A stretch of 64,000 bases of DNA, taken from NCBI GenBank assembly GCA_964639285.1, contig CAZXCI010000001.1, forward strand, positions 219,757 to 283,756. The letters run 5' to 3'. Below the pieces are notes generated by a model. The model saw nothing but the letters and a program-made list of their open reading frames with translations, did not search any database and was not told where the DNA came from. Shown piece after piece: positions 3,446 through 59,642 of this stretch. Position 1 is the first letter of the stretch. Each line of letters begins with the position of its first letter. This stretch comes from an uncultured Candidatus Saccharibacteria bacterium. Its GTDB lineage: Bacteria; Patescibacteriota; Minisyncoccia; Phycocordibacterales; XYD1-FULL-46-19. The translations under genes were made by a program, and so were the position numbers.

Positions 3446-4492
3446 TTAAATTAATAATTTGTCTTTTAATTTATGTCGTGGGGTGGTTCGAAATTGCTTG
3501 TCCATTCGACCTGCGGCAAAAACGAATTGAGGGTCGTCCTGAGATCCAATAATCTTCTTAACTTCTTGATAGAAATTACCGATTTCAATGGAGGCAAGAT
3601 AAATCGAAGTGTTATAACCATCATTTTGTAATTCGAGCATTAGACGTTCAATTAACCGGCCCAGCTTGATCCAAGTTTCGGCTCGTGGCTTCGGTGCAGT
3701 AAAAATAAAAACAAAGGGTGAAGTTGAGACGCTCAAGTAATTAATTTTGCCCATAATTGGGCCCATGTTGAAAAATCGAATTACTTTTGATACAAAAAGA
3801 GATATCGGTCCGGGCATATTCATTGAATAGCCGATCATTCCATCATTTCTTCGACTATAGTTACTGATAATCCATCTGGACATTTCTCGCCTAAAGTTTT
3901 TGTCGGAGTGGGCCAAACGCATTCCTTGCTGAGTTAAACTGGCAATCTTTTCAATTTCGGCGGGGGTGGTAATAATCTTAACGTTAATTCCATCTTCGGA
4001 CCAGCGACTGATTAAATCTTTAAGTTTTGCAATGTAAGACTGATCAATTTTTTCTCTAATGAAAGGCCCACGGGCGTTGGTGCGATGTAGAATTGTTTTA
4101 ATGAGTGATGACAAATCTTTCTTGTCTTCCTCGTCTTCAAATGAAACTGTCGCAATCAAATTACCCACATTGTCGTCAGCAGAATAAATGATTTCTGTTT
4201 TTTGGCCATAATACTTGGCGGCAATGACGAGGTTTTCAATTGCGCAGCCGATACTGATGTATAGATCACGGCTTTTAGGGTCGGCATACTTCAGTTTAAG
4301 TTGAGGATCAAAATAAACGGAACAAATATTTTTTTGTACTTTGAATAACCAAGGCTGAGTATTATGGGTTGAGGGAGCTAAAATAGTATAACGTAGTAAA
4401 AATTTAATTTTCTCTTCGATATTAGTTAGACCAAAAAATAAGTCCTTCTCTTGGACCAATTGATTACGCATTTTATCTAATCTTGCTTCCAT
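3446..4492 (-). CDS. Nitroreductase-family (FMN-dependent dehydrogenase-fold) protein, 348 aa
   Basis: APSTHNTQPWLF motif, the NQPW nitroreductase signature; larger than a canonical NfsB-type nitroreductase; SagB-like is not excluded. Confidence 0.65.
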   Translation of the reverse strand: MEARLDKMRNQLVQEKDLFFGLTNIEEKIKFLLRYTILAPSTHNTQPWLFKVQKNICSVYFDPQLKLKYADPKSRDLYISIGCAIENLVIAAKYYGQKTEIIYSADDNVGNLIATVSFEDEEDKKDLSSLIKTILHRTNARGPFIREKIDQSYIAKLKDLISRWSEDGINVKIITTPAEIEKIASLTQQGMRLAHSDKNFRREMSRWIISNYSRRNDGMIGYSMNMPGPISLFVSKVIRFFNMGPIMGKINYLSVSTSPFVFIFTAPKPRAETWIKLGRLIERLMLELQNDGYNTSIYLASIEIGNFYQEVKKIIGSQDDPQFVFAAGRMDKQFRTTPRHKLKDKLLI

Positions 4493-9615: not shown

Positions 9616-10710
9616 TTATAATCCTTCGGATTGCAGATTTTCGATCGCCTCACGGGCTTTCTTAGAAAGTTTCGCCGGGGTTGGGAAAGTGACCCGGATG
9701 AGGAGGTCGCCTCTTCGGCTTGTTCCTCGAATGGGTACACCCTTAGCCTTTACCCGTAAAATTTCGCCATAGGTGAGCCCAGCTGGCACCTTCAAAGTTA
9801 GTTGTCCATCGGGAGTTTCTAATTTATAGTCAGTGCCGAGCAGGGCCTCGGTTAATTTGATTTTGATATCGGTGACGAGATCGTTGCCGTTGCGCCTCCA
9901 AGTTTTGTCTTTATCGACATGAACTTTTATATATAAGTCTCCAGTCTGTCCGCCAGCCACCGCTTCGCCTTGACCGGTAAGACGTATCATCTCCCCCGCA
10001 TCGATTCCTGCCGGAACTTTGACCTCGATGCTCTCTTGTTTGTTCAGAATTCCGGCCCCGTGACAGGGCTGGCATTTTTTCTCAGGTATTTCACCACGGC
10101 CAAGGCAGTCGCTACATTCATGGGTTGATTGGAATACGCCGAAGATTGAGCGTCGAGTCTCATTGACCTTCCCTTTCCCGTCACAAGTGGCACATTTTTT
10201 CATCTGAGAGCCAGCTTCGGCTCCAGAGCCATGACAGTTGTCACATTGACTGACTTTATTAATTAAAATATTTCTCTCAGTGCCAAAAATGGCCTCTTTG
10301 AAACTGATTTGGATATCTACTGATATGTCTCTTCCTCTTTTGACCCGGCTACGCCCGCCACCACCGTTGAACATTTCGCCGAAGATATCGCCTAAGTCGA
10401 ATTCGAAGCCACCATTCCCCGCATTTTGGAAACCAGAAAAATCAAAACCACCCCACGCACCATTCGGTCCATGGTTAGTACCGCCTCCGTGATTGCCGCT
10501 AGCAAAATCACTTCCGAACTGATCATACTGTGCGCGCTTAGTATCGTCAGAGAGGATCTGATAAGCTTCGTTAATTTCTTTAAATTTCGCTTCATCACCG
10601 CCCTGCTTGTCGGGGTGGTATTTATGGGCAAGTTTATGAAAAGCTTTTTTCACCTCTTCCTTAGAGGCCTTTTTTTCCACGCCCAATGTTTTGTAATAGT
10701 CTTTGGCCAT
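9616..10710 (-). CDS. dnaJ: Chaperone DnaJ
   Basis: J-domain YYKTLGV...HKLAHKYHPDK, a Gly-rich linker, and four CxxCxGxG zinc-finger repeats. Confidence 0.9.
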   Translation of the reverse strand: MAKDYYKTLGVEKKASKEEVKKAFHKLAHKYHPDKQGGDEAKFKEINEAYQILSDDTKRAQYDQFGSDFASGNHGGGTNHGPNGAWGGFDFSGFQNAGNGGFEFDLGDIFGEMFNGGGGRSRVKRGRDISVDIQISFKEAIFGTERNILINKVSQCDNCHGSGAEAGSQMKKCATCDGKGKVNETRRSIFGVFQSTHECSDCLGRGEIPEKKCQPCHGAGILNKQESIEVKVPAGIDAGEMIRLTGQGEAVAGGQTGDLYIKVHVDKDKTWRRNGNDLVTDIKIKLTEALLGTDYKLETPDGQLTLKVPAGLTYGEILRVKAKGVPIRGTSRRGDLLIRVTFPTPAKLSKKAREAIENLQSEGL

Positions 10711-10814
10711 CCCGTTAGAAATTCATTAATTTATAAGTAATTTCAGACCTTTTATATTTATCAATAATCGTAATATTTACCCCCGTATTTCTAGATAGTA
10801 AAATTTCTAACGGG
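10711..10814 (-). repeat. Inverted-repeat leader element, copy A (CCCGTTAGAAAT...ATTTCTAACGGG, 104 nt, AT-rich interior); it abuts the dnaJ start codon
   Basis: Terminal inverted repeats of 12-13 nt; the same arms are found at 52178-52264 and 59520-59642. Confidence 0.7.
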
Positions 10815-10829
10815 ACCATGTATCCTTAT

Positions 10830-10857
10830 ATTATACTATGTTTTTTGCTAGGGGCAA
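10830..10857 (-). promoter_or_regulatory. Putative sigma70-type promoter for dnaJ (-35 TTGCCC, 16-nt spacer, -10 TATAAT), directly upstream of element copy A
   Basis: Minus-strand reading of plus 10852-10857 and 10830-10835. Confidence 0.4.
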
Positions 10858-11378: not shown

Positions 11379-11451
11379 GTTTCGAGGTTGGATCTGGCCC
11401 CCACTTCGCTAAAGCTATGAGGGGCAGGTATGCGAGATCCAACCTCGAAAG

Positions 11452-13392
11452 CTATGATTTTGTTTCTGCGTCTCTTACATTACCTTCGTCGGAGTCGGAA
11501 GGGCTGGCATTGTCAGCGGGCTTCGCCTCGCTGGAGCCTTCGGCGGAAGCGGGGGCGGATTGGGCCTTCATTAATGCTTCTCCAATTTTTTGCATTTCGG
11601 CAGAGAGGGCGGCGGTCGCTGTTTTAATCGCCTCAATATCCTCGCCATCCTTTACGCCCTTGAGAGCAGTAATTTTGTCTTCGACTCCCCTTTTGATTTC
11701 TTCGGGAACTTTTTTCTCACCTTCGGGTACGCCATCGGCATCTTTCAAACTTTTTTCGGCAGTATAAATTAATTGATCAGCCATGTTGCGAGTTTCAATT
11801 ACCTCGCGCTTTTTCTTGTCTTCTTCGGCGTGAAGTTCGGCATCTTTTTTCATCTTTTCAATATCTTCTTTAGAAAGACTAGTCTTGGCTTCAATGCGAA
11901 TTGATTGTTCTTTGTTTGTCGCTTTATCCTTAGCTTTGACCGACAATATACCGTTGGCATCAAGGTCGAAGGTAACTTCAACCTGAGGCAAACCCCTTGG
12001 TGATGGCGGGATGCCGTCTAAGATGAAGCGGCCAAGTGTTTTGTTATCAGTTACTAGTTCTCGTTCGCCTTGGACGATATGAATTTCAACAGATGTTTGA
12101 TTGTCGGCGGCGGTCGAGAAAATTTGTGACCGCGAGGTAGGGATTGTCGTGTTGCGTTCAATAATTTTTGTAGCAACTCCACCCATTGTTTCGATACCGA
12201 GAGAAAGTGGGGTGACATCGAGGAGCAGGACATCTTTTACGTCTCCGGCAAAAATTCCTCCTTGGATGGCCGCTCCAATAGCTACGACCTCGTCGGGGTT
12301 AATTGAACGGTTTGGCTCTTTGCCGAAGAGGGTTTTTACGGCTTCTTGTATCGCCGGCATACGAGTCTGGCCCCCAACCATGATAATCTCATTAATATCG
12401 CCTACTGCGAGCCCAGAGGCTGTCATAGCACGCTTGGTGATCTCAATCGACTTATCGATAAACTCACGGGCAAGATCCTCTAATGTTGCCCGAGTCATGC
12501 TCATATTGAGGTGGACAGGGCCAGAGGCATCGGAGGTAATAAATGGGATGTTGATCTCGGTTTGATTCATTGTTGAGAGTTCATGTTTGGCTTTCTCGGC
12601 GGCTTCTTTCAAGCGTTGAAGGGCGAGTTCGTCTTTGGTGATATCAATACCATTTTGCTTTTTGAACTCATTACCAATCCAGGCAATGATTTTTTGATCA
12701 ATGTCTTCTCCACCCATATGTGAGTCACCATCGGTAGATTTAACGGAGATACTTTGCTCCTCCTCGCCCCCAATGATTTCGAGAACTGAGACGTCGAAAG
12801 TTCCTCCGCCAAAATCGTAGACAACAACCTTTTCGTCTTTTTTCTTATCAAGACCATAAGCCAAAGCGGCGGCTGTCGGTTCGTTGATAATTCGACGAAC
12901 CTTAAAGCCGGCAATTTCGCCAGCATCTTTTGTTGCCTTGCGTTGAGAGTCGTCGAAGTAGGCGGGCACCGTGATAACAGCCTCTTCAATCTTTTCCCCA
13001 AGCTTGGCCTCAGCATCGTGTTTTAATTTTTGGAGAATTTGAGCCGAGATTTCTTCTGGTCGGAAGTTTTTGTCTCCCATTTTGACCTGGACACCACCGT
13101 CTGATGACTGCTCCATGGTGAAGGAAACAAGCCCCTTATCTTTTTGGATATTGGGATCGTTGAATTTGTGACCCATTAAGCGCTTCACACCAAAAATTGT
13201 GTTCTTTGGGTTAGTGATAGCTTGGCGTTTAGCCAATTGACCCACTAAGCGCTCACCCGCTTTAGAAGTTGCCACAATCGATGGGGTCGTGCGCATACCC
13301 TCGACGTTTTCGACGATACGAGGAGAACCGCCCTCAACAACAGCCATCGCTGAGTTTGCTGTACCTAGATCAATTCCTAAAATTTTTGCCAT
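11452..13392 (-). CDS. dnaK: Chaperone DnaK (Hsp70)
   Basis: [18 protein letters not shown]..., full-length Hsp70. Confidence 0.95.
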
Positions 13393-13978: not shown

Positions 13979-14050
13979 ATTTTAGTGATTTTTAAGAATT
14001 GTTGACTTTTCTTATTCTTGATAATAACAAAAATATTATTTTAATCAATA

Positions 14051-14088
14051 TGTGCGATATCCAATCTCGCACAATAAGGATATTTTAG
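14051..14088. repeat. REP-like palindrome tgtgcga-tatccaatc-tcgcaca plus a conserved tail ataaggatattttag
   Basis: Same unit, with the loop flipped, at 49101-49138; flanks the RAYT gene. Confidence 0.7.
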
Positions 14089-14769
14089 CTATTCTATCCA
14101 CAGATTTGTATAGTTTATAGAGCTGGCTTCTTTTAACCATTCACCTATTTCTTTTTCAAGTTCTTGGGGTGATCTGAGGTAGTCAATTAGTTGATCTTTG
14201 TCTATAATGCTGGCAAAATTGTTGTAGCCTAAGTAATCGCGAAGACTCGACCATTCGTATGATTTTAAGAAGTCTAAAAGACGACTTTTGTCTACAATTT
14301 CTTTTTCTTTCCAGCGGGCTTCAATAAGTTCGGCAGGATTAAAATGGATGTAAAAAGGAATATAATTTAATTGTTCTTCGTTTTCAATTCTAACAAATTT
14401 GTATTTACCTTGGAACAAAGTTCCTGATCTTTCGTTTTTAATATTGAAATAGTGAGTATAGCCAATCCCGATTTTTTTCATAAATTCCGAAGCCCCGTCT
14501 TTGACCAACGGTTTAATTAGGAGGTGGTAATGGTTAGGCATTAAAACAAAAGCCAGGATCTCTACAAGTTTTTCTCGTTGATCTTCTGTTTTTGTGCGAG
14601 ATTGGATATCGCACAAACGATCAATATTTTTTGTTTGATTGACGTCGTTAAAATAATAAAGACAAGCCAAAAAACGACGCCTATCATTGTCGCAACTAAA
14701 TATCTCCCGTTTATCTACCCCGCGGTTGTAGATGTGGTAAATATAGTCCTCCGTCGGCTTTTCTCTCAT
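14089..14769 (-). mobile_element. REP-associated tyrosine transposase (RAYT), an IS200-like Y1 HUH transposase
   Basis: HUH motif LMPNHYHLLI and catalytic Tyr motif FYIHFNP; flanked on both sides by REP palindromes. Confidence 0.75.
14593..14615. repeat. REP palindrome copy (tgtgcga-gattggata-tcgcaca) inside the RAYT coding sequence, translated as ...DRLCDIQSRTK...
   Basis: Identical 7-nt stems and the same 9-nt loop as the uvrC copy. Confidence 0.6.
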
Positions 14770-14800
14770 GTTGTGGATATCTTACCATAAAAACCTTTAT

Positions 14801-14850
14801 TGTGCGATATCCAACCTGCCCGAAATGCCTAGGCAGGCGGGTCTCGCACA
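14801..14850. repeat. REP palindrome (tgtgcga...tcgcaca) carrying a nested 27-nt GC-rich element (cctgcccgaaatgcctaggcaggcggg) in its loop
   Basis: REP stems at 14801-14807 and 14844-14850; the nested element at 14815-14841 belongs to the cctgcc/ggcagg family. Confidence 0.6.
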
Positions 14851-38906: not shown

Positions 38907-40019
38907 TTAAATCTTAAACTCAATCACATCCCCGTCTTTGACGATATATTCTTTGCCCTCAGTACGAACAAGACCTTGCTCACGTGCTTTACCATAAGAA
39001 CCGGCTTTAAGGAGATCTTGCCAATTGATAATCTCAGCTTTGATAAATTTATCATAGAAGTCGGTGTGGATAGCCGTACCAGCCACCGGAGCCGTTGAAT
39101 CTTTCTTTATCGTCCAAGCCCGGGTCTCATCTTCGCCCGTGGTGAGGAAGGTGATGAGTCCCAGCATCTTATAACTTTCTTTGATCAGGTCATTAATACC
39201 GTCATCTTCGACCCCCAACTCTTTTTTGAAGACTTCTTTATCCTCCTTTTCAAGTTCGGATAGCTCCCCCTCAATTTTGGCATCAACTATCACCCAATTC
39301 GCTTTAATCTTACCTAAATAATCAATCAATTCTTGGTTTACCCCGTTAGAAGTAGCTAATTCATTAGCGTTAGTTCTAATGGGGCCAGAGTGCTTGTTAT
39401 TTAGAACATATAGTATAGGTTTGGCCGACAAGAGATGCATCCCCTTAAGAATTTCTTCTTCCTCTTTGGTTAGGGAAACAGAATTGGCCATTTGCCCCTT
39501 TTTCAAAACTTCTTCAATTTTTACCAGAACGGCATGTTCAGCGATAGCTGTCTTGTCTCCCCGCTTCACGTCATGAGCGAGATTGGCAATTCTTTTACTC
39601 ACCGTCTGGTCATCGGCCAAGATCAATTCGAGATTGATAGTCTCAATGTCATCAATTGGGTCAATGCGATCAGAAACGTGAGTAATATTAGAATCTTCAT
39701 AAATTCTTACCACTTCAATAATAGCATCCACTTCACGGATATGGGACAAGAATTTATTTCCTAGCCCTTCGCCGGCCGAAGCTCCTTTCACCAAACCGGC
39801 AATATCTACGAATTCAATGGCCGCCGGGATTCTTTTGGCCGAATGAGAAAAATCAGCGAGAATATCAACACGCTCGTCTGGCACTGCCACAATCCCCACC
39901 GCCGGATCAATAGTACAGAAAGGGTAATTCTCCGCCGGCACCCCCTTCCGCGTCAATGCGTTAAAAAGCGTCGATTTCCCGACATTTGGCAACCCCACAA
40001 TTCCCACCGAAATATTCAT
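38907..40019 (-). CDS. ychF: Ribosome-binding ATPase YchF (Obg-family GTPase)
   Basis: GIVGLPNVGKSTLFNALT...NYPFCTIDP. Confidence 0.85.
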   Translation of the reverse strand: MNISVGIVGLPNVGKSTLFNALTRKGVPAENYPFCTIDPAVGIVAVPDERVDILADFSHSAKRIPAAIEFVDIAGLVKGASAGEGLGNKFLSHIREVDAIIEVVRIYEDSNITHVSDRIDPIDDIETINLELILADDQTVSKRIANLAHDVKRGDKTAIAEHAVLVKIEEVLKKGQMANSVSLTKEEEEILKGMHLLSAKPILYVLNNKHSGPIRTNANELATSNGVNQELIDYLGKIKANWVIVDAKIEGELSELEKEDKEVFKKELGVEDDGINDLIKESYKMLGLITFLTTGEDETRAWTIKKDSTAPVAGTAIHTDFYDKFIKAEIINWQDLLKAGSYGKAREQGLVRTEGKEYIVKDGDVIEFKI

Positions 40020-42559: not shown

Positions 42560-42605
42560 AACAATCGTAATTAAACCAAATTTTGGGGTAAAAAGGAAGG
42601 AAAAG

Positions 42606-43261: not shown

Positions 43262-43310
43262 CAAGGGGCCTTGCCGGGATCGAACCGGCCACCTTTCCTG
43301 TGCAGTCGTA
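43262..43310 (-). pseudogene. tRNA 3'-half remnant (anticodon TGC region to acceptor 3' end) fused to a copy of the upstream flank of tRNA-Ala(TGC)
   Basis: TGCAC-AGGAA-AGGTG-GCCGG-TTCGATC-CCGGC-AAGGCCC-C parses as tRNA positions 34-73; the adjacent 35 nt at 43311-43345 are nearly identical to 42560-42600. Confidence 0.5.
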
Positions 43311-43367
43311 ATTAAACCAAATTTTGGGGCAAAAAGGAAGGTAGATAAGATTTCTCCTCTGCTAAAC

Positions 43368-48216: not shown

Positions 48217-49528
48217 TATTGGCCAGAATTATGGCTTTGCGATAATCGCGAATAATCGCCGAGTCACCGATTAATTTCCCCACTTTATGTCTGTCGTTTT
48301 TAGTCACGGCAATGATCTGTGCTCTGTTTAGCGCCGTGCGATTTCTCACAACAGAATCGGCCACATTAACTTGCACCTGATTCCCATCAACCACAATAAC
48401 ATCGGGGTAAGGCCACTCCGTGTGAGCCAAGCGACGTTCGAGAATCTCGCGCAAATTAGCGAGGTCATCAACTTGTTTGGCTTTTGATCCTTTTAGTTTA
48501 AACTTTTTGTATTTACTCTTATCCATTTCGCCGTCTTGCCAGACAACCATCGCCCCCGCAGTATTCGTTCCCGAGAGATGGGCAATGTCATAGGCTTCAA
48601 TCCGAATTGAATGAGTCATAATTTGCGTCCGAGGTCTCTCCTCTGGTGAGTTCGAGGTGAGTCCTCGGGCCCCTTTGAGCAGCGACACATCTCGAATATG
48701 ATTCAAAGCGAAGATTTGATCACGAACTTGCCCCGCTTTTTCGAACTCTCGCTTCTTTGACAAGTTCTTCATCTCTTTTTCCAAACTCTTCAAAATTTCT
48801 TGTTTTTTACCAGAAAAAAGAAGTTTAATGTTTCGCACAATTTTCCGATAATCCGTCTTAGAAATTTCCCCCGTGCAGACACCGGGACAAAGTCCGATCT
48901 GGCGATTGAAACAAGAACGACACCGGTCGCGAGGAGAGACCTCGGCCTGCCCGCAATGCTTTGTAACGCAAGGCAGGCGGGGCTCACTTGAGGACTCACC
49001 TCCCGATCTGCAGGGCAAGCATTTATCCCGAAACGGGAAAATTTTACGAATAATCTTCAGCGCCTCTTTAATTTCACTCGCATAAGGAAACGGCCCAAAT
49101 TGTGCGAGATTGGATATCGCACAATAAGGATATTTTAGTTCTTGGCCACGGACAAGGAGGACACGGGGGAAGTCTTCGTCAGTAATAATGACATACCAAT
49201 AGCTCTTGTCATCTTTTTCTCGCGAATTATATTTGGGTTGATGCTTCTTAATCAATTCGGTCTCCAACAATAGCGCTTCTAAGACAGAATCTGTCTCCTG
49301 CCACTCTACCTTATCCGCAATCTCAACCATACGCCAAATCTTGGGTCCTCTCTTCGCCACGCCGGAGCCTTCGGCGAAGGCTGGGCCAATATCACCAACA
49401 AAATAACTCCGCACTCGATCCTTGAGCGAAGTCGCTTTGCCGACGTAGAGGAGACTTTTCCCCCGTTTGAAGAAATAAACCCCTGGCTTATCTGGCAATT
49501 TATATTTTTTTACATCTTGACTATTCAT
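48158..49528 (-). CDS. uvrC: Excinuclease ABC subunit C, short form lacking the C-terminal (HhH)2 domain and carrying in-frame repeat insertions
   Basis: GIY-YIG motif VYFFKRGKSLLYVGKATSLKDRVRSYF and a C-terminal endonuclease-like domain. Confidence 0.8.
   Translation of the reverse strand: MNSQDVKKYKLPDKPGVYFFKRGKSLLYVGKATSLKDRVRSYFVGDIGPAFAEGSGVAKRGPKIWRMVEIADKVEWQETDSVLEALLLETELIKKHQPKYNSREKDDKSYWYVIITDEDFPRVLLVRGQELKYPYCAISNLAQFGPFPYASEIKEALKIIRKIFPFRDKCLPCRSGGESSSEPRLPCVTKHCGQAEVSPRDRCRSCFNRQIGLCPGVCTGEISKTDYRKIVRNIKLLFSGKKQEILKSLEKEMKNLSKKREFEKAGQVRDQIFALNHIRDVSLLKGARGLTSNSPEERPRTQIMTHSIRIEAYDIAHLSGTNTAGAMVVWQDGEMDKSKYKKFKLKGSKAKQVDDLANLREILERRLAHTEWPYPDVIVVDGNQVQVNVADSVVRNRTALNRAQIIAVTKNDRHKVGKLIGDSAIIRDYRKAIILANSEAHRFALFYHRKLRGRLL
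48931..49003. repeat. Composite GC-rich mini-element inside uvrC: a 36-nt cctgcc...ggcagg element nested within a copy of the 42-nt element also present in mnmA
   Basis: ggctcacttgaggactcacctc is shared with 25321-25342; the 36-nt insert is in-frame (translated RLPCVTKHCGQA). Confidence 0.65.
49101..49138. repeat. REP unit (tgtgcga-gattggata-tcgcaca plus tail ataaggatattttag) inside uvrC, translated in-frame
   Basis: Same unit as the RAYT-flanking REP at 14051-14088, with the loop inverted. Confidence 0.7.
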
Positions 49529-49549: not shown

Positions 49550-52177
49550 TTATTTTTTTCTCAACGCCCTTTTGAGATACTTCGCCGTGAAAGAGCCCGG
49601 GGCGTAGGCCACTTCCTCAGGTGTCCCTTTGGCCACCAAGTCACCGCCCCCAAGACCGCCATCCGGACCCATGTCAATAATATAATCAGCACATTTGATC
49701 ACCTCCATATTGTGCTCGATCACCACCACGGTATTCCCCTTCTCTACTAATTTCTGCAAAATATTATTCAAATTTTTCACATCTTCATAGTGCAGACCAA
49801 TCGTCGGTTCATCGAGAATATAAATTGTTCGCTCGGTATGCGGACGATAAAGTTCGGAAGAGATCTTCACCCGTTGCGCTTCACCGCCCGACAAGTCGGT
49901 CGCTGATTGACCAAGTTCGAGATAACCCAGACCCACATCATTAAGAGTTTTGAGTCGATCATAAATGGCTGGGATATCGTTGAAGAACCCTAAAGCTTCT
50001 TCAATCGTCATATGGAGAATCTGACTAATATTTTCCTTTTTATATTGTACCTCGAGCGTATCTTTCTCATAACGAGTGCCTAAACATAAGTCACAAGGAA
50101 CATAGATGGTTGGCAGGAAATGCATCTCTACCGCCACTTCGCCATTACCCCGACAAGCCTCACAACGCCCGCCCTGCACGTTGAAGGAAAAGCGCGAAGC
50201 CTTCCATCCTCTGGCTCGAGCGAGAGCTGTCTCAGCCAAGAGTTCACGAATGAAGGTGAACGCGCCGGTATAAGTGGCTGGATTCGAGCGTGGCGTTCGA
50301 CCAATCGGTGATTGATCAATCATCACGACGCGACTAAGATATTCGCTCCCTGAGAATTCTCGGCAATTAAATAATTCATTTGTGCGATAACGTCGCTCCA
50401 GTCGCGCCTGCAAATTTTTAAACAAAATTTCGTAAACCAAAGATGATTTACCCGAACCTGATACCCCCGTGATCGCCACAAGTTTCCCTAGAGGAATATC
50501 AACATTAAGATTTTTAATATTGAAGATTTGGCCTCCCCGAATTTTGATTGTCCCCTTATCTTTGCTCCGGCGATTCTCGGGGACGGGGATTTCTTTGTCC
50601 CCGCGCAAATAATCAACAGTTAGAGAATTATGATCATTTTTCTTCGAAGTCAGGAGTTTGTCTGTCTCACCCGCCACCACAATTTCTCCACCATGAACAC
50701 CGGCTCCCGGCCCAATATCCACAAGATAGTCGGAGGCAAAAATTGTGTCTTCGTCATGTTCAACGACGACAATAGAATTACCAAGATCGCGCAATTCGAG
50801 CAAGGTTTTTATCAAGCGATCATTGTCACGGGCATGCAAACCAATTGTCGGCTCATCGAGTACATAGAGAGTCCCCACCAAGCGTGAACCAAGCTGAGAC
50901 GCCAAACGTATACGTTGAGCTTCACCACCAGAGAGAGTGTCCGCCCGACGATTAAGAGCAATATAATCCAAACCAACATCATTTAAGAACTTCAGGCGAG
51001 CGCCAATCTCTTTAGTCAGAACTTCAGAAATCGCTTTATCCTTAGGTGATAATTTAAGAGTGTCAAAAAATTTCTTAGCTTCGCCAATGGATAAAGCGAC
51101 GAGGTCGACAATATTTTCATTAAAAATTTTCACTTCGAGGGCTTCGGGGCGAAGCCTGGCCCCCAAACAAGTCTCACAGACTTCGTTACCCCACATATGC
51201 TTGGTTCCCAAACCATGACAAGCGGGACAAGCCCCATAAGGAGAATTGAAGGAGAAGAGGCGAGGCTCAATCTCGGGGAAAGAGAAACCGTCATGGGGGC
51301 AAGCAAATTTTGACGACAAGAGGGAAGTCTCCCCTCCGATGATAATCTTAATTAAACCGTCAGATTCTTTGAGCGCTCGCTCCACCCCCTCGGTTAAGCG
51401 TTCGTTAGCTGAGTCAAATTTAGCAATGGCAACAATCTTGCTAAGTTCGCCCCGCGTAGCTTTAGCGGAGTGGGGCTTCGCGATAAAATCGGACAAGTTT
51501 ATCTCATCCACTACTACATCAATATCGTGTTTCTTGGTTTTAGTGAGAATTATTCTTTCGCGTAATTTATATTTTTTATTATCAATCAAAACTTCTGAAT
51601 AACCCTTCTCAATCAGATCATAGAGAAGTTGATAATATTCACCTTTTCTCCCTTTCACTACCGGCGCCAGCAATGTGACTGAGGTAAAGGCAGAGAGAGA
51701 TCGTTTTTCGCGTAGCAAAATGGGGTCTCGCGGAGCTTCTTCTATTTTATTTTTTACAAAATTCACAATCTCCTCATGTGAAAGTTTTTCGATCCGTGTT
51801 CCACAGACAGGGCAATAGGGCTGACCAATTCGAGCATATAGCACCCGTAGATAATCATAAATCTCGGTAATAGTAGCAACAGTTGAACGTGGATTATGTG
51901 ATCGTGACTTCTGATCAATGGAGATGGCGGGCGAGAGACCGGTAATCTCATCGACGTCAGGCTTAGGTAATTGCTTCAAAAATTGACGAGCGTAAGCTGA
52001 GAGCGATTCCACATAACGACGTTGGCCCTCGGCAAAAATTGTGTCAAAAGCGAGGCTAGACTTGCCCGAACCCGAAAGACCAGTAAAAACCACCAACTTA
52101 TTGCGTGGTATTTCTAAACTCACATTCTTGAGATTATGAGTCCGAGCCCCCTTAATTTTGATTTTTTGTTCTTCCAC
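49550..52177 (-). CDS. uvrA: Excinuclease ABC subunit A (GTG start)
   Basis: [10 protein letters not shown]...[23 protein letters not shown]; two ABC ATPase modules. Confidence 0.9.
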
Positions 52178-52264
52178 CCCGTTAGAAATAGATCGCGATC
52201 TATGAATAAATAATAATCTCTTTAGACTCTCTCGTTAGCCATCGCGGTTTCTAACGGGATTCAT
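52178..52264 (-). repeat. Inverted-repeat leader element, copy B; abuts the uvrA start codon
   Basis: CCCGTTAGAAATAGATCGCGATC...CGCGGTTTCTAACGGGATTCAT. Confidence 0.7.
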
Positions 52265-52334
52265 AATCGAAATCCCCTCTGGTTTTCCCATAGGGTGATA
52301 GAGCGATTATAACATACGAGTCAAACTTTGGGAA

Positions 52335-55048: not shown

Positions 55049-57208
55049 TTATTGATTGCTTTTCTCCAACTCACGAATCTCGTCACGGAGGATGGCAGCG
55101 GTTTCGAAGTCGAGATTCTTGACTGCTTCGGACATTTGTTTATTTTTTTCTTTAATCAATTTCTTATAACCCTTCTTATCAAGATCAAGCGTCTCAATCG
55201 CCAGCAAATTGGCCACCGCCTTATGACGATCCCCAGCAATCGAGTCAGTAATGTCATGAATTTTCTTAGAAATAGAAATGGGGGTGATTTTGTGTTTTTT
55301 GTTATAAGCCAGCTGGATAGTGCGACGACGATTGGTCTCATCAATCGCCTTCTTCATTGAGCCAGTCACAACATCAGCATAAAGAATTACTCGCCCAGCC
55401 AAATTACGAGCCGCCCGACCGATAGTCTGAATTAAGGAAACTTCAGAACGCAAAAACCCCTCCTTATCAGCATCAAGAATCCCGATGAAAGAGACCTCGG
55501 GCAAGTCCAAGCCCTCACGCAAGAGGTTCACTCCCACCAAGCAGTCAAAAGTTCCTCGACGAAATTCGGTGAGAATCTTAATGCGCTCCAAGGTCTTAAC
55601 CTCACTGTGGAGATACTCCGACTTCACCCCCTCGTTCTTGAGATACTCGGCGAGATCCTCGGCCATCTTCTTGGTGAGAGTGGTGGCAATCACGCGATGA
55701 CCACTTTTAATTTCTTTTTGTGCTTCTACTATAAAATCTTTTATCTGGCCATCGTAAGCCCGGCAGTTTGAAGTCGTATCTCGCGTAGCCAGATCCGACT
55801 TCGAACTGCCAGATCCGAGGACTTTCTGAGAAGCAGAGTTCTTCTTCGGAGTTATTCTTGAAATTATGGGCCTAATTTTGACCATTGGATCAATCAACCC
55901 AGTCGGACGGATAATTTGTTCGACAACGCCCTTTCCTTCACTTTTTTCAAGTTCATACTCACCTGGTGTGGCACTGGTATAGATAACTTGACCAACCCGT
56001 TCTTCAAATTCGGGGAACCTAAGGGGGCGATTATCAAGCGCGGAGGGAAGACGAAAACCATACTCAACTAAATTCTTCTTGCGACTCTCATCACCAGCAA
56101 ACATCCCCCGAATTTGTGGTACCGCCACATGCGATTCATCAATAATGGTCAAAAAGTCAGCGACCTTCTTCGCATGAGAACCTGTCCCGAGCGTAGTCGA
56201 GGGGAAGTAGTCAAGCAAAGTCGCTGGCGCCTCCCCCTTCTTCCGCCCCGTTAGGTGACGCGAATAATTCTCAATTCCATTGCAATAACCCACCTCCTTA
56301 ATCATCGCGAGGTCATAATTGGTTCGTCTTTTTAATCTCTCGGCCTCAAGCAACTTCCCCTCTTTATTTAATTCCTTCAATCTCGTCTCAAGCTCTAATT
56401 TTATAGATTTTATCGCGCGATCACGGTCTTCTTGACTAGTGATGAAGTGCTTGGCCGGATAAATATAGGTTTCTCGGGGCGTACTAATGATCCGCCGGGA
56501 AATAGAATCAACGATCAAAATTTCACCAACTCTACTTGCCCCGTCATGAGAGGAGTCAGCCACCATTTTCAAATTCACAATCTCACGGCTACCCGGCAAC
56601 ATAATCTCGATGGAGTTACCAATCGCGCGGAAGGTGCCCGGAGTTAAGTCAGCATTTGTTCGTTCAAAATAAACATTGATTAATTTCTCAATAATTTCCT
56701 GACGCGTATATTTGTCACCCACCAAGAGACGCACGAAGCTCTTGGCATATTCCTCCGGACTCCCTAAGCCATAAATACACGAAACCGAAGCGACAATAAT
56801 CACATCACGCCGAGTAAGCAAGGCCTCGGTGGAAGCATAGCGCAAACGCTCAATTTCTTCGTTAATGCTGGCGTCCTTCTCGATATAAGTATCAGAGTGA
56901 GCAATATAGGCTTCGGGTTGATAATAATCGTAATAAGAGACAAAATAATGCACGGCCGCATCAGGGAAAAAATCGCGATACTCTTGGGCCAATTGGGCCG
57001 CCAAGGTCTTGTTGTGAGCGATTACCAGGGTTGGCTTATTGTGCTCGGCAATCACATTGGCCATGGTGAAGGTCTTGCCCGAGCCCGTCACACCCAACAA
57101 GGTCTGATGCTTGAGACCTTCCTTAAGCCCCTTAACCAGCGCCTCAATCGCTCGTGGTTGGTCACCAGCTGGGGCAAACTTAGATTGTAATTTAAAAATC
57201 TTGGCCAT
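55049..57208 (-). CDS. uvrB: Excinuclease ABC subunit B
   Basis: GVTGSGKTFTMANVI, helicase motifs, C-terminal UVR domain; possible insertion of about 35 aa around 55762-55820. Confidence 0.9.
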   Translation of the reverse strand: MAKIFKLQSKFAPAGDQPRAIEALVKGLKEGLKHQTLLGVTGSGKTFTMANVIAEHNKPTLVIAHNKTLAAQLAQEYRDFFPDAAVHYFVSYYDYYQPEAYIAHSDTYIEKDASINEEIERLRYASTEALLTRRDVIIVASVSCIYGLGSPEEYAKSFVRLLVGDKYTRQEIIEKLINVYFERTNADLTPGTFRAIGNSIEIMLPGSREIVNLKMVADSSHDGASRVGEILIVDSISRRIISTPRETYIYPAKHFITSQEDRDRAIKSIKLELETRLKELNKEGKLLEAERLKRRTNYDLAMIKEVGYCNGIENYSRHLTGRKKGEAPATLLDYFPSTTLGTGSHAKKVADFLTIIDESHVAVPQIRGMFAGDESRKKNLVEYGFRLPSALDNRPLRFPEFEERVGQVIYTSATPGEYELEKSEGKGVVEQIIRPTGLIDPMVKIRPIISRITPKKNSASQKVLGSGSSKSDLATRDTTSNCRAYDGQIKDFIVEAQKEIKSGHRVIATTLTKKMAEDLAEYLKNEGVKSEYLHSEVKTLERIKILTEFRRGTFDCLVGVNLLREGLDLPEVSFIGILDADKEGFLRSEVSLIQTIGRAARNLAGRVILYADVVTGSMKKAIDETNRRRTIQLAYNKKHKITPISISKKIHDITDSIAGDRHKAVANLLAIETLDLDKKGYKKLIKEKNKQMSEAVKNLDFETAAILRDEIRELEKSNQ

Positions 57209-58475
57209 TGATAATTTTTTCTCTAATGTTATTAGTCAAATGGATTAGAAAATAGAGATTATGAACTGAGGCAAGTGTGCCGGCCAACATTTCCTTAGCG
57301 CGGAAGAGGTGGGCCAAGTAAGCGCGAGTGTAATGCTTACAAACATAACAACCGCAACCTTCCTCAATCGGAGTAAAATCTTCTTTATATTGAGCATTCA
57401 AGATATTTAGACGGCCATTTTTTGTAATTAACGTACCATTCCTAGCCATGCGGGTAGGAGTGACACAATCGAAAGTGTCGGCTCCATTTTTAATCCCCTC
57501 CACGATATCTTCAGATTCGCCAATGCCTAATAAATGTCTTGGTTTGTCTTCGGGCAAAAGAGCGGAGACCCAACCCACCGCTGTCCCCATGTCTTCTTTA
57601 TTAAAGGAGCCCCCAATGCCGAAGCCGTCGAAGTCCATTGCTCCAATCACCCTTGCCGATTCTTCTCGCAAATCTTGATGTCGCCCACCCTGAACAATGC
57701 CAAATAAGGCGGGTTGCGAAGAAGGTAAGAAGTCCCTATCAAAAACGTCTGGCCGAGCATCGCGAGGAGATCCGAGGACTTTTTGAGAGGGAGCTTCTTC
57801 CTTCTGAAGCAAACGTTTATGTTCAGCCAAACTTCTCTCCGCCCAACGGTGAGTTCTCTCCATCGCTTGCTTCTGATAATCATAGTCAGCAGAAGGTGAC
57901 GTGCATTCATCAAAAGCAAAAATAATATCCGCTCCCAAATTATGCTGAATCTGCATCGAACGTTCAGGGGTGAAGCGATGCTCACTCCCATCAATATGTG
58001 ATTTGAAAGTTACCCCTTCCTCATCAATCTTCGCCAGCTTGACAATAGGCTCACGATCGGAGTCTTCTTCGGCCTGCCCGCCTAAGTTTTGCTTAGCAAA
58101 ATTTTGGAGGGCAAATTTAGAAATCCCACCTTCACCGTATGCGGCCCCCAGAGAGAAAACTTGGAAACCGCCAGAGTCAGTCATCATTGGTCCGTGCCAA
58201 TTCATAAAATTATGCAGTCCACCCGCGCGAGCCACCAATTCATCGCCTGGTTGGAGATATAAGTGATAAGTGTTAGCGAGCACCACTTGCGCGCCAAGAT
58301 TATTGACCATCTCGGGCGTCAGAGCTTTAACTGTGGCCTTAGTTCCCACAGCAACAAAAGCCGGGGTCTGGATATCCCCGTGTGCCGTATGGATCACTCC
58401 GGCCCTGCCTGCGCAGGCAGGCCGGCCTAACTCACCTTTCATCTTCTTCTCAATTTTAAAACTAAAATCGCTCAC
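57192..58475 (-). CDS. tgt: Queuine tRNA-ribosyltransferase
   Basis: TPAFVAVGT and the zinc site CGCYVCKHYTRAYLAHLF; a GC-rich palindrome is translated in-frame near the N-terminus. Confidence 0.85.
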   Translation of the reverse strand: MSDFSFKIEKKMKGELGRPACAGRAGVIHTAHGDIQTPAFVAVGTKATVKALTPEMVNNLGAQVVLANTYHLYLQPGDELVARAGGLHNFMNWHGPMMTDSGGFQVFSLGAAYGEGGISKFALQNFAKQNLGGQAEEDSDREPIVKLAKIDEEGVTFKSHIDGSEHRFTPERSMQIQHNLGADIIFAFDECTSPSADYDYQKQAMERTHRWAERSLAEHKRLLQKEEAPSQKVLGSPRDARPDVFDRDFLPSSQPALFGIVQGGRHQDLREESARVIGAMDFDGFGIGGSFNKEDMGTAVGWVSALLPEDKPRHLLGIGESEDIVEGIKNGADTFDCVTPTRMARNGTLITKNGRLNILNAQYKEDFTPIEEGCGCYVCKHYTRAYLAHLFRAKEMLAGTLASVHNLYFLIHLTNNIREKIINGQDF

Positions 58476-58517: not shown

Positions 58518-59519
58518 TTATTTCACTAGGTTCACCGGTGTGCCGGAGGCAAAACTTCTGACATTCTCAAGGGTTGTATTAACGATACGCAGCATAGCCT
58601 CCCAAGTGTTGAAGGCGTTGTGCGGAGTGACAATAACATTGGGCATATCAACCAAAATGTGGTTTTGCAAGACCGTACGGAGATTGTGTTCACCCGAACT
58701 TGGGGTGGTGAGATAAGTAAATTCATCTTTAGTCACCCCCTCTTCTTCTAAGACATCAAGACCAGCTCCCGCCAAGTGTCCATCTTTAAGACTCTTGAGT
58801 AAAGCATCTGTCTCGACTAAAGCCCCGCGAGCCGTATTGATGAGGTAAGCCCCTTTCTTCATCTTGGCCAAAGTGTCAGCGTTGATGAGGTGATGATTCT
58901 CTTCCATATAGGGCACATGTAGAGTCACAATATCAGCTTGCGCCAAGACCTCATCGAAAGTTAGATATTGGTAATCAAATTTCGCCCGATAGGCCTCATC
59001 GGGGAATTTGTCATAAGCGATAACCTTCATGTTGAAGCCTTTAGCAATCTCAATCACGTTCTTGCCAATCTTGCCGGTGCCAATCACACCCAACGTTTTC
59101 CCATTCAGGTCAAAACCGCGCATCCCCTCGAGGCTAAAGCTTCCTGTCTCTCTAATCCGATCATAGCTAGCAAAAATCTTACGTGACAGGGTGAGCATCA
59201 GGGCAAAGGCGTATTCGGCCACCGTCTCCTCACCATAACTCGGGACATTAGCCACCACGACTCCGTGAGCTTTGCAAAGGTCAAGATCAATATGATCAAA
59301 ACCGGTCGAGCGTGTCGAAATCATTTTGAGCTTGGGAAAATGAACGAGAACTTTCTCATTAATTACTGAATTCACAAAAACAGAAAGGATCTCCGCATCA
59401 TTCTCGGTCGGCAGAGTGTCTTCGGTCAAAATTCCATCAAGAAGTTCTGTCTCAGACAAATTTTGTTCCTGCAAATACTCCTTTTCCCATTTTTCTAACT
59501 CAAAAAATATTGTTTTCAT
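58518..59519 (-). CDS. D-isomer-specific 2-hydroxyacid dehydrogenase (D-lactate dehydrogenase-like)
   Basis: GKTLGVIGTGKIG NAD-binding motif, catalytic region AYLINTARGALV...H. Confidence 0.8.
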   Translation of the reverse strand: MKTIFFELEKWEKEYLQEQNLSETELLDGILTEDTLPTENDAEILSVFVNSVINEKVLVHFPKLKMISTRSTGFDHIDLDLCKAHGVVVANVPSYGEETVAEYAFALMLTLSRKIFASYDRIRETGSFSLEGMRGFDLNGKTLGVIGTGKIGKNVIEIAKGFNMKVIAYDKFPDEAYRAKFDYQYLTFDEVLAQADIVTLHVPYMEENHHLINADTLAKMKKGAYLINTARGALVETDALLKSLKDGHLAGAGLDVLEEEGVTKDEFTYLTTPSSGEHNLRTVLQNHILVDMPNVIVTPHNAFNTWEAMLRIVNTTLENVRSFASGTPVNLVK

Positions 59520-59642
59520 CCCGTTAGAAACAGGTCGCGATCTTTAAATCACCACCCGTCATTATTTTATTATTTAATAATATCTTTAACATTTTAACTT
59601 TTATACACCATCCTAGCGATCGCGGTTTCTAACGGGATTCAT
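59520..59642 (-). repeat. Inverted-repeat leader element, copy C; abuts the start codon of the 2-hydroxyacid dehydrogenase gene
   Basis: CCCGTTAGAAACAGGTCGCGATC...GATCGCGGTTTCTAACGGGATTCAT. Confidence 0.7.

Follow-up and report, generated by a model that had tools for sequence, protein, structure and literature searches.

The window analysed here, a stretch of 64,000 nucleotides (64 kb) from an uncultured Candidatus Saccharibacteria bacterium, carries three inverted-repeat elements, each adjoining the start of a gene on the minus strand. Copy A (10710..10815, minus; 106 nt) precedes dnaJ (9616..10710, minus), which encodes a 364-aa protein with the Pfam domains DnaJ, DnaJ_C and DnaJ_CXXCXGXG. 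Copy B (52177..52259, minus; 83 nt) precedes uvrA (49550..52177, minus; 875 aa, GTG start), and copy C (59519..59637, minus; 119 nt) precedes the gene for a D-isomer-specific 2-hydroxyacid dehydrogenase (58518..59519, minus; 333 aa, 2-Hacid_dh). Six exact matches to the 11-mer TTTCTAACGGG lie in the window, forming three inverted pairs spaced by 59–95 nt, which confirms the three elements that an earlier note on this DNA had placed beside these genes. With one mismatch allowed, TTTCTAACGGG has 9 matches in the window against 1.58 expected, a number reached by 0 of 100 shuffles.

The inverted repeat of all three copies measures 12 bp (YCCCGTTAGAAA...TTTCTAACGGGR). Copy A reads T-CCCGTTAGAAA ... 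TTTCTAACGGG-A, and copies B and C end in T...G and T...A, respectively. Copies B and C have ~23-nt arms in common, containing GATCGCGA; copy A resembles them in the 12-bp ends only and has an unrelated interior, which corrects the earlier note, where all three were said to share arms of 12–23 nt. Directly 3' of the three 3' arms lie ATG, GTG and ATG, opening proteins with canonical N-termini. The 3' arm had been thought to end at position −1 of each gene. Because one extra complementary base lies beyond each arm (T...A or T...G), the element's final base instead doubles as the opening base of the start codon: A in the ATG of dnaJ (10710), G in the GTG of uvrA (52177) and A in the ATG of the dehydrogenase gene (59519).

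Target-site duplications are present at all three copies. The duplication is perfect in copy C (TGAA, 59641-59638 and 59518-59515, minus), has one mismatch in copy B (upstream TGAA, 52263-52260; downstream TGGA, 52176-52173, minus) and is reduced to three matching bases in copy A (upstream A-TGG, 10816..10819; downstream TGG, 10709-10707, minus). A displaced original ATG remains upstream of each element, at 10819-10817 for dnaJ and 52264-52262 for uvrA, and opens a short upstream reading frame. In copy A, this frame (10715..10819, minus; 34 codons plus stop) crosses the whole element and ends at a TAA within the 3' arm, 4 nt short of the rebuilt dnaJ ATG. Copies B and C contain the nine-codon frames MNPVRNRDG (52235..52264, minus) and MNPVRNRDR (59613..59642, minus), each closed by a stop codon. 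Both had been noticed before and attributed to the element itself; their opening ATG lies outside it and is the gene's original start, left behind by the target-site duplication. The mini-ORF of copy C starts 4 nt past the stop codon of a PEP-synthase-like gene, an operon-internal site.

The dnaJ promoter predicted earlier (TTGCCC, 16-nt spacer, TATAAT; 10830..10857, minus) was found and is kept in the relatives L122, L123 and L133. Only 10 nt separate the end of its −10 box from the original ATG, implying a near-leaderless transcript. The uvrA promoter (TTCCCA-17-TGnTATAAT; 52306..52334, minus) is followed by a conserved leader, CACCCTATGGGAAAACCAGAGGGG, up to the original ATG. The motif CACCCTATGGGNAAACCAGAGGG (52275-52300, minus), downstream of the extended −10 TGnTATAAT, is kept in four relatives (L202-L205) and may be a regulatory site or a structured uvrA leader.

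Other repeats are scattered through the window. A 44-nt inverted repeat at 39341-39384, with arm-like ends CCCCGTTAGAAG...GTTCTAATGGGG, sits inside a 370-aa ORF without a flanking duplication and is probably a chance match or a decayed relic. GC-rich repeats occur in frame inside conserved proteins, at 55811-55850 (uvrB) and 57768-57807 (tgt), which share SQKVLGS, and in the further pairs 11521-11554 / 49352-49385 and 11399-11425 / 51449-51475. UvrA relatives differ mainly by GC-rich inserted segments, and the in-frame repeats suggest that another repeat family inserts itself into coding sequences. Between two tRNA-Ala genes lies an apparent 3' half of a tRNA (GGTGGCCGGTTCGATCCCGGCAAGG; ~43262-43300, minus), following a 39-nt block duplicated at 42562-42600 and 43303-43341 and followed by a TTGACT-17-TATAAT promoter. 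ARAGORN and Rfam made no call on this half, which may be a remnant of integration or duplication.

Distribution, ends and target sites of the family

We scanned public genomes, one per species, for the pattern CCCGTTAGAAA-N55-85-TTTCTAACGGG with perfect arms. The scan gave at least 120 loci, in Patescibacteria (many classes), Planctomycetota, Omnitrophota, Desulfobacterota, Nitrospirota, KSB1 and a few Proteobacteria; the carriers among the matches listed are all uncultured genomes assembled from metagenomes. Complete genomes with the element include CP011215.1 (Campbellbacteria) and CP113000.1. Since perfect arms were demanded, arm conservation in this set is partly a sampling effect. The base just outside each arm (l1 and r1) is complementary to its partner in 118 of the 127 copies among the matches listed (C:G in 79, T:A in 39), which extends the inverted repeat to 12 bp. 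Some copies deviate from the common arm sequence, each change on one arm being mirrored on the other (AAG/CTT, AGA/TCT and ATA/TAT). Full-size copies measure ~80–130 nt and mini copies 29–49 nt. The interiors are non-coding and highly variable, with one T next to each arm as the sole conserved base, and the only ORFs are frames of 9–38 codons that start outside the element, leaving no capacity to encode a transposase. An Rfam search gave the elements no match to any RNA family, whether at gathering score or at E up to 5. One copy, in a Pseudomonadota locus (L091, ~3559-3590), lies 7 nt upstream of an apparent tRNA 5' end (GCAGGCGGATAGCTCAGTTGGTAGAGC), as judged by eye.

The flanks of the elements are duplicated. 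A perfect 4-nt direct repeat borders 76 of the 127 copies among the matches listed; it is absent in the other 51, which counts against the explanation we adopt below. The middle two flank positions match directly in 84 of these listed copies and as an inverted repeat in only 8, the signature of a target duplication rather than of an arm extension. The duplication begins with T (position −5, 82%) and ends with A (position −2, 84%), giving the consensus TNNA among the matches listed, and TTAA itself appears in 1 of 127 left flanks of that set and in one mini copy. The reconstructed empty site has a purine-rich flank on one side and a pyrimidine-rich flank on the other, so that the target reads R-TNNA-Y.

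Orthologous sites exist with and without the element. The dnaJ site was compared among metagenome DnaJ orthologues, found through DnaJ and not through the arms. It is filled in the window and in L123, with homologous interiors, and empty in L122, L133, L125 and L134, where the promoter is followed by ~10 nt and ATGGCC (TATAAT-N10-ATGGCC as read in L122 and L133). Between the window and L123, end stretches of 18 nt and 22 nt are identical and the interior is ~75% identical, which hints at constraint on the ends. At the uvrA site, four relatives (82–88% UvrA identity) lack the element and have the promoter and leader of the window; all four begin uvrA with ATGGAA versus GTGGAA in the window, where the G is the element's last base. 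The clpP site is filled in three lineages, with unrelated interiors, and empty in three others. One of the filled clpP sites (L304) has a mutated arm, CCCGCTAGAAA, which argues against a strict arm requirement. Sites found empty and filled at dnaJ, uvrA and clpP are marks of a transposable element. In the DnaJ tree, the empty lineages fall between the two filled ones with nearly star-like distances, too star-like to prove precise excision.

The three window elements are therefore MITE-like mobile elements, and neither an operator nor an RNA thermometer: they are small, bounded by terminal inverted repeats and a 4-bp target duplication, devoid of transposase coding capacity, present in several copies per genome, and both present and absent at orthologous sites. 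This was one of three options raised in the earlier note. A second, a protein-binding operator, is weighed here together with a further candidate, an integron attC-like recombination site, and we consider this pair of readings barely credible. The arm spacing runs from ~5 to >100 nt, far too variable for a dimeric operator, the flanks are duplicated, and the adjoining genes are ordinary housekeeping genes with no stress regulon. The CIRCE / HrcA operator is TTAGCACTC-N9-GAGTGCTAA upstream of heat-shock genes; as the earlier note had stated, the elements do not match it, in sequence, in arm spacing (59–95 nt) or in the genes they adjoin, which include non-heat-shock genes. An attC site has the order 5'-RYYYAAC ... 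GTTRRRY-3', with crossover between the G and the TT of its GTT, and occurs in cassette arrays. The arm cores GTTAGAA / TTCTAAC do resemble the attC core sites GTTRRRY / RYYYAAC, and ends conserved across phyla around a variable 55–105-nt centre recall attC architecture. The order here is the reverse, however (5'-GTTAG...CTAAC-3'), the boundaries defined by the duplicated flanks lie 4 nt outside GTT (outside YCCC), and the copies are dispersed singly at gene starts rather than in cassette arrays.

Elements at start codons

Across the family, an ATG or GTG at positions r1–r3 opens a long ORF (80 codons or more, or, for frames cut off by the end of the locus, an open stretch of 30 codons or more) on 47 of 65 sides among the matches listed, versus 19 of 184 control frames. 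The earlier note had tied the element to start codons, an association that copies at unrelated positions would reduce to that of a plain MITE. Among the matches listed, it stands in candidate-phyla-radiation (CPR) bacteria, with 34 of 54 copies at start codons and TGAA as the commonest duplication, and falls in other phyla, with 7 of 56 copies and TAAA/TTTA as the commonest duplication; unclassified genomes have 6 of 16 copies at start codons, with TAAA/TTTA and TGAA commonest. The TAAA-type copies of other phyla lie at varying distances from gene starts. The link to start codons is real and specific to CPR bacteria, whose genomes are compact, poor in Shine-Dalgarno (SD) sequences and largely leaderless in style and keep most of their copies at a start codon.

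The geometry at these sites is constant. The original ATG lies upstream, and the rebuilt codon consists of the element's purine followed by TG: because the element ends in a purine, insertion between the A and the TGNN of a start region gives ...ATGNN-[Y...R]-TGNN..., and ATG or GTG is rebuilt. The original codon is ATG and the rebuilt one GTG in 8 copies among the matches listed. What remains upstream of the element is the native start codon, together with the gene's promoter or ribosome-binding context. The adjoining genes among the matches listed are housekeeping genes read from their canonical first residue, including rplA, rpsH, rpmC, topA, ligA, a uvrD-like gene, ssb and clpP, as well as hrcA, hpf, pgk, gmk, fmt, hisA and pilC. 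We conclude that these copies probably belong to a MITE-like mobile family that, in CPR bacteria, sits mostly on start codons and rebuilds the codon with its own last base.

Tolerance of harmless insertions does not by itself account for this placement. Among the matches listed, CPR copies with a perfect TGAA duplication stand at start codons in 16 of 17 cases, compared with 23% expected if all non-disruptive RTGAAN sites of the same loci were equal (p ~1e-9). A filter that removes disruptive insertions is thus not enough by itself. Insertion may be aimed at start codons, or copies that land there may be retained preferentially; the data do not separate targeting from selection. Two other targets were considered and rejected: stop codons, which fall inside the duplication at only 9 of 73 gene ends near elements, and transcription start sites as a general rule, since several start-codon copies are operon-internal or at ATGA overlaps (e.g. 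copy C).

A bolder version of the targeting alternative makes the element a start-codon-homing, portable and possibly reversible translational-control cassette of CPR bacteria, removable by precise piggyBac-like excision. We regard this as distinctly unlikely. It would entail active targeting of first codons, a start codon rebuilt by the element's terminal purine, a leader of hairpin and upstream ORF placed in control of the gene, and expression dependent on translation from the displaced original start, and tiny SD-poor genomes with few regulators could in this way retune essential genes such as dnaJ, uvrA, clpP, hrcA, ssb, topA and the ribosomal protein genes.

For the mobile family as such, the consequences are broader. 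If it is as widespread as the scan suggests, it represents an unrecognised mobile element common to CPR bacteria, Planctomycetota, Omnitrophota, Desulfobacterota and others, which implies cross-phylum transfer of the enzyme that moves it. Insertion exactly at the start codons of essential genes, with the codon rebuilt, would be an unusual way for a transposon to be tolerated. Annotation is affected as well, through starts changed from ATG to GTG, spurious small ORFs or N-terminal extensions, and broken assemblies.

The predicted RNA leader and its translation

SD-like motifs are scarce in this genome, which is assigned to the Paceibacterota. An SD-like 4-mer lies upstream of 4 of 43 window genes versus 6.5% at random positions, which is about background. 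A −10-like TAnnnT box stands 5–9 nt before the start codon in 17 of 43 long window genes versus 9% at random, pointing to a leaderless style. An internal promoter that would give a leaderless transcript at the rebuilt ATG was considered and rejected, the bases upstream of that codon (TTTCTAACGGG) being unlike a −10 box.

After insertion, the transcript would start at or near the displaced ATG, and the gene would gain a leader of ~80–120 nt, essentially the element. The arms of this RNA would form a very stable stem, the base of which would pair the first two nucleotides of the rebuilt start codon. In the predicted fold the arms close, r1 and r2 of the rebuilt codon are paired, and the arm pair probability stays at or above 0.98 from 15 to 65 °C. 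Of the long hairpin suggested earlier to sequester the initiation region, the pairing of the first two bases of the codon is predicted here; SD sequences that it could mask are almost absent from the genome.

The third option of the earlier note, an RNA thermometer or stress-responsive translational switch on heat-shock and DNA-repair genes, starts from the same hairpin. As in RNA thermometers, the start codon would be partly buried in a stem, and stress genes account for two of the three in the window. In a known thermometer, a weak stem over the SD sequence or the AUG melts at physiological temperatures; the stem here is far too stable for that, being predicted not to melt between 15 and 65 °C, which argues against such a switch. 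The 4 of 43 genes with an SD-like motif leave little for it to sequester, the Rfam search drew a blank even at E up to 5, and the genes adjoining elements elsewhere include rplA, rpsH, rpmC, pgk, gmk, fmt, hisA and pilC. We rate this reading extremely improbable.

A more plausible route runs through the upstream reading frame. Ribosomes would start at the displaced original ATG and translate the short upstream ORF into the 5' arm, opening the stem, and the gene would then be translated by coupling or re-initiation; alternatively, fresh initiation could take place on the unmasked start codon. Where the upstream ORF ends would be set by the length of the element. The 3' arm offers an outcome in all three frames: a TAA 4 nt before the start, an ATGA overlap, or continuation in frame into the coding sequence. 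No stop codon interrupts the upstream ORF within the interior in 13 of 35 copies, versus 29 of 175 for other frames (p = 0.01), which tentatively suggests coupling to it as the likeliest route of translation. Early stops weigh against coupling: the upstream ORFs of copies B and C have 9 codons, and that of the orthologous copy in L123 has 15. Leader-peptide coupling of known kinds likewise has an upstream ORF whose translation would open a stem; the peptide here differs in being conserved only in the residues encoded by the arm, and its coupling to the gene is putative.

The element might also have become useful to its host, as co-option into a leader is possible. This reading holds that the element is kept since hairpin and upstream ORF usefully control translation or mRNA stability, for example as a 5'-terminal stem protecting near-leaderless transcripts, with the arms under host-level selection. 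It extends the mobile-family explanation rather than excluding it. The dnaJ copy is inherited vertically between the window and L123, with the identical ends and diverged interior described above; upstream ORFs traverse the element uninterrupted more often than the other frames do; the excess of copies at start codons is larger than a non-disruptive-sites-only filter would leave; and the interior, in gene orientation, is rich in purines and in A on the mRNA sense strand (A>T, p = 0.0002; G>C, p = 0.005). This skew could, however, be ordinary transcription-linked bias. In L123 the orthologous upstream ORF is interrupted, the clpP copy of L304 tolerates its altered arm, interiors are unrelated between copies, and close relatives lack the element at dnaJ, uvrA and clpP. 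On balance, we find a domesticated leader rather unlikely. Whichever route translation takes, the copies offer natural test cases for the way in which an internal start, placed at the foot of a stable hairpin, is located by the ribosomes of SD-poor, leaderless-style genomes.

Search for a moving enzyme, and comparison with known systems

A search of ~0.9 Mb of loci, the window and viral contigs turned up neither an autonomous element nor a transposase gene bounded by these ends. All-against-all clustering of 939 ORFs from the loci returned only housekeeping families and a Y1_Tnp family that does not flank the elements, and the viral-contig scan gave ~90 single matches, estimated to be near chance level, and a few mini copies. 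Several candidates were set aside. Arm pairs separated by 135–5000 nt whose duplications matched proved to be either separate copies or chance agreements between frequent flank sequences, and phage genes lie between the widely spaced arms of L245 and L260. An inverted pair in L007 corresponds to a 325-nt repeat containing the element. In this genome, DX4.bin27, a 92-nt element lies inside the larger ~325-nt repeat (L007 2046-2369 and 4832-5155; L006 1-215; L031 1275-1498), which is multi-copy and breaks contigs; two inverted copies flank a gene for a 686-aa secreted protein. In L065, a lone right arm TTTCTAACGGG (2039-2049) adjoins an epimerase ATG just after an MNT/HepT-like toxin-antitoxin pair, its left arm not being found, and may be a copy split by inserted cargo or one that lost its other end.

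The window encodes an IS200-like Y1 transposase (14089-14769, minus; Pfam Y1_Tnp, E 1.8e-7). Its gene is flanked in REP-RAYT-like fashion by a 25-nt palindrome, TTGTGCGAGATTGGATATCGCACAA, with copies at 14050-14075, 14592-14616, 14789-14850 and 49100-49124. A GC-rich hairpin interrupts one copy, another falls within the Y1 gene, another lies immediately upstream of grpE and another is translated as part of uvrC; in shape alone, the 8-N9-8 layout is CIRCE-like.

REPINs, the REP/RAYT repeats, are small, dispersed and hairpin-forming, as are the elements, and a RAYT-like Y1 gene is present in the window. The elements could accordingly be single-strand hairpins moved REPIN-like by an HUH/Y1 enzyme (IS200-like or RAYT-like) and not by a DDE transposase. 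The mini copies of 29–49 nt barely exceed a perfect hairpin and offer very little length for a DDE-type (cut-and-paste) transposase to form a synapse, though they may have arisen by internal deletion. Y1 ORFs similar to that of the window occur in L029, L088 and L106. Y1 transposition leaves no target duplication, however, and REPINs have none, whereas the elements carry a variable 4-bp one; the window Y1 gene is flanked by a different, unrelated palindrome; and the Y1 genes of L029 and L106 have the element on one side only, at a distance of ~560 nt. Movement by such an enzyme is very unlikely.

The element end CCCGTTAGAAA resembles that of piggyBac, CCCTAGAAAG, and IS1380 makes target duplications of 4–5 bp. 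The piggyBac superfamily has inverted repeats of 12–19 bp, typically beginning CCC...GGG, and a 4-bp TTAA duplication (PMC5381638); its bacterial relative IS1380 was taken as an outgroup in PMC10813416. CCC...GGG ends and a 4-bp T..A duplication are features in common, and precise excision would fit the clean empty sites seen here. The elements differ from piggyBac in that the middle two duplication positions are free, TTAA is rare and one extra complementary pair precedes CCC. An affinity to piggyBac/IS1380 is at this stage a resemblance and a possible lead to the moving enzyme.

A full-text literature search, by arm sequences and for MITEs at start codons, found no description of the family or of start-codon rebuilding. 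Bacterial MITEs such as Correia/CREE, RUP, Nezha and Chunjie are short elements without coding capacity that carry terminal inverted repeats and lie between duplicated target sites; they form long RNA hairpins, are co-transcribed with their neighbours and are sometimes fused to neighbouring reading frames (PMC3184786). Empty and filled orthologous sites are likewise common to them and to the window family (PMC3184786). The family here differs in its end sequence, its 4-bp TNNA duplication and the occurrence of its 12-bp ends in many phyla, not one genus; its terminal base systematically rebuilds a start codon, and no parent insertion sequence is known.

By analogy of function, the nearest parallel is the MIRU of mycobacteria (PMC3184786). 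MIRUs are tandem units with weak inverted repeats, confined to one genus, and there is no report that their own terminal base rebuilds a start codon. Like the elements of the window, they are short repeats set between reading frames: intercistronic, 40–100 bp long and bordered at filled sites by tetranucleotide direct repeats (Supply et al. 1997, as summarised in PMC3184786). Their small ORFs overlap the neighbouring genes at both ends, as described there, so that translation can couple through the repeat (PMC3184786).
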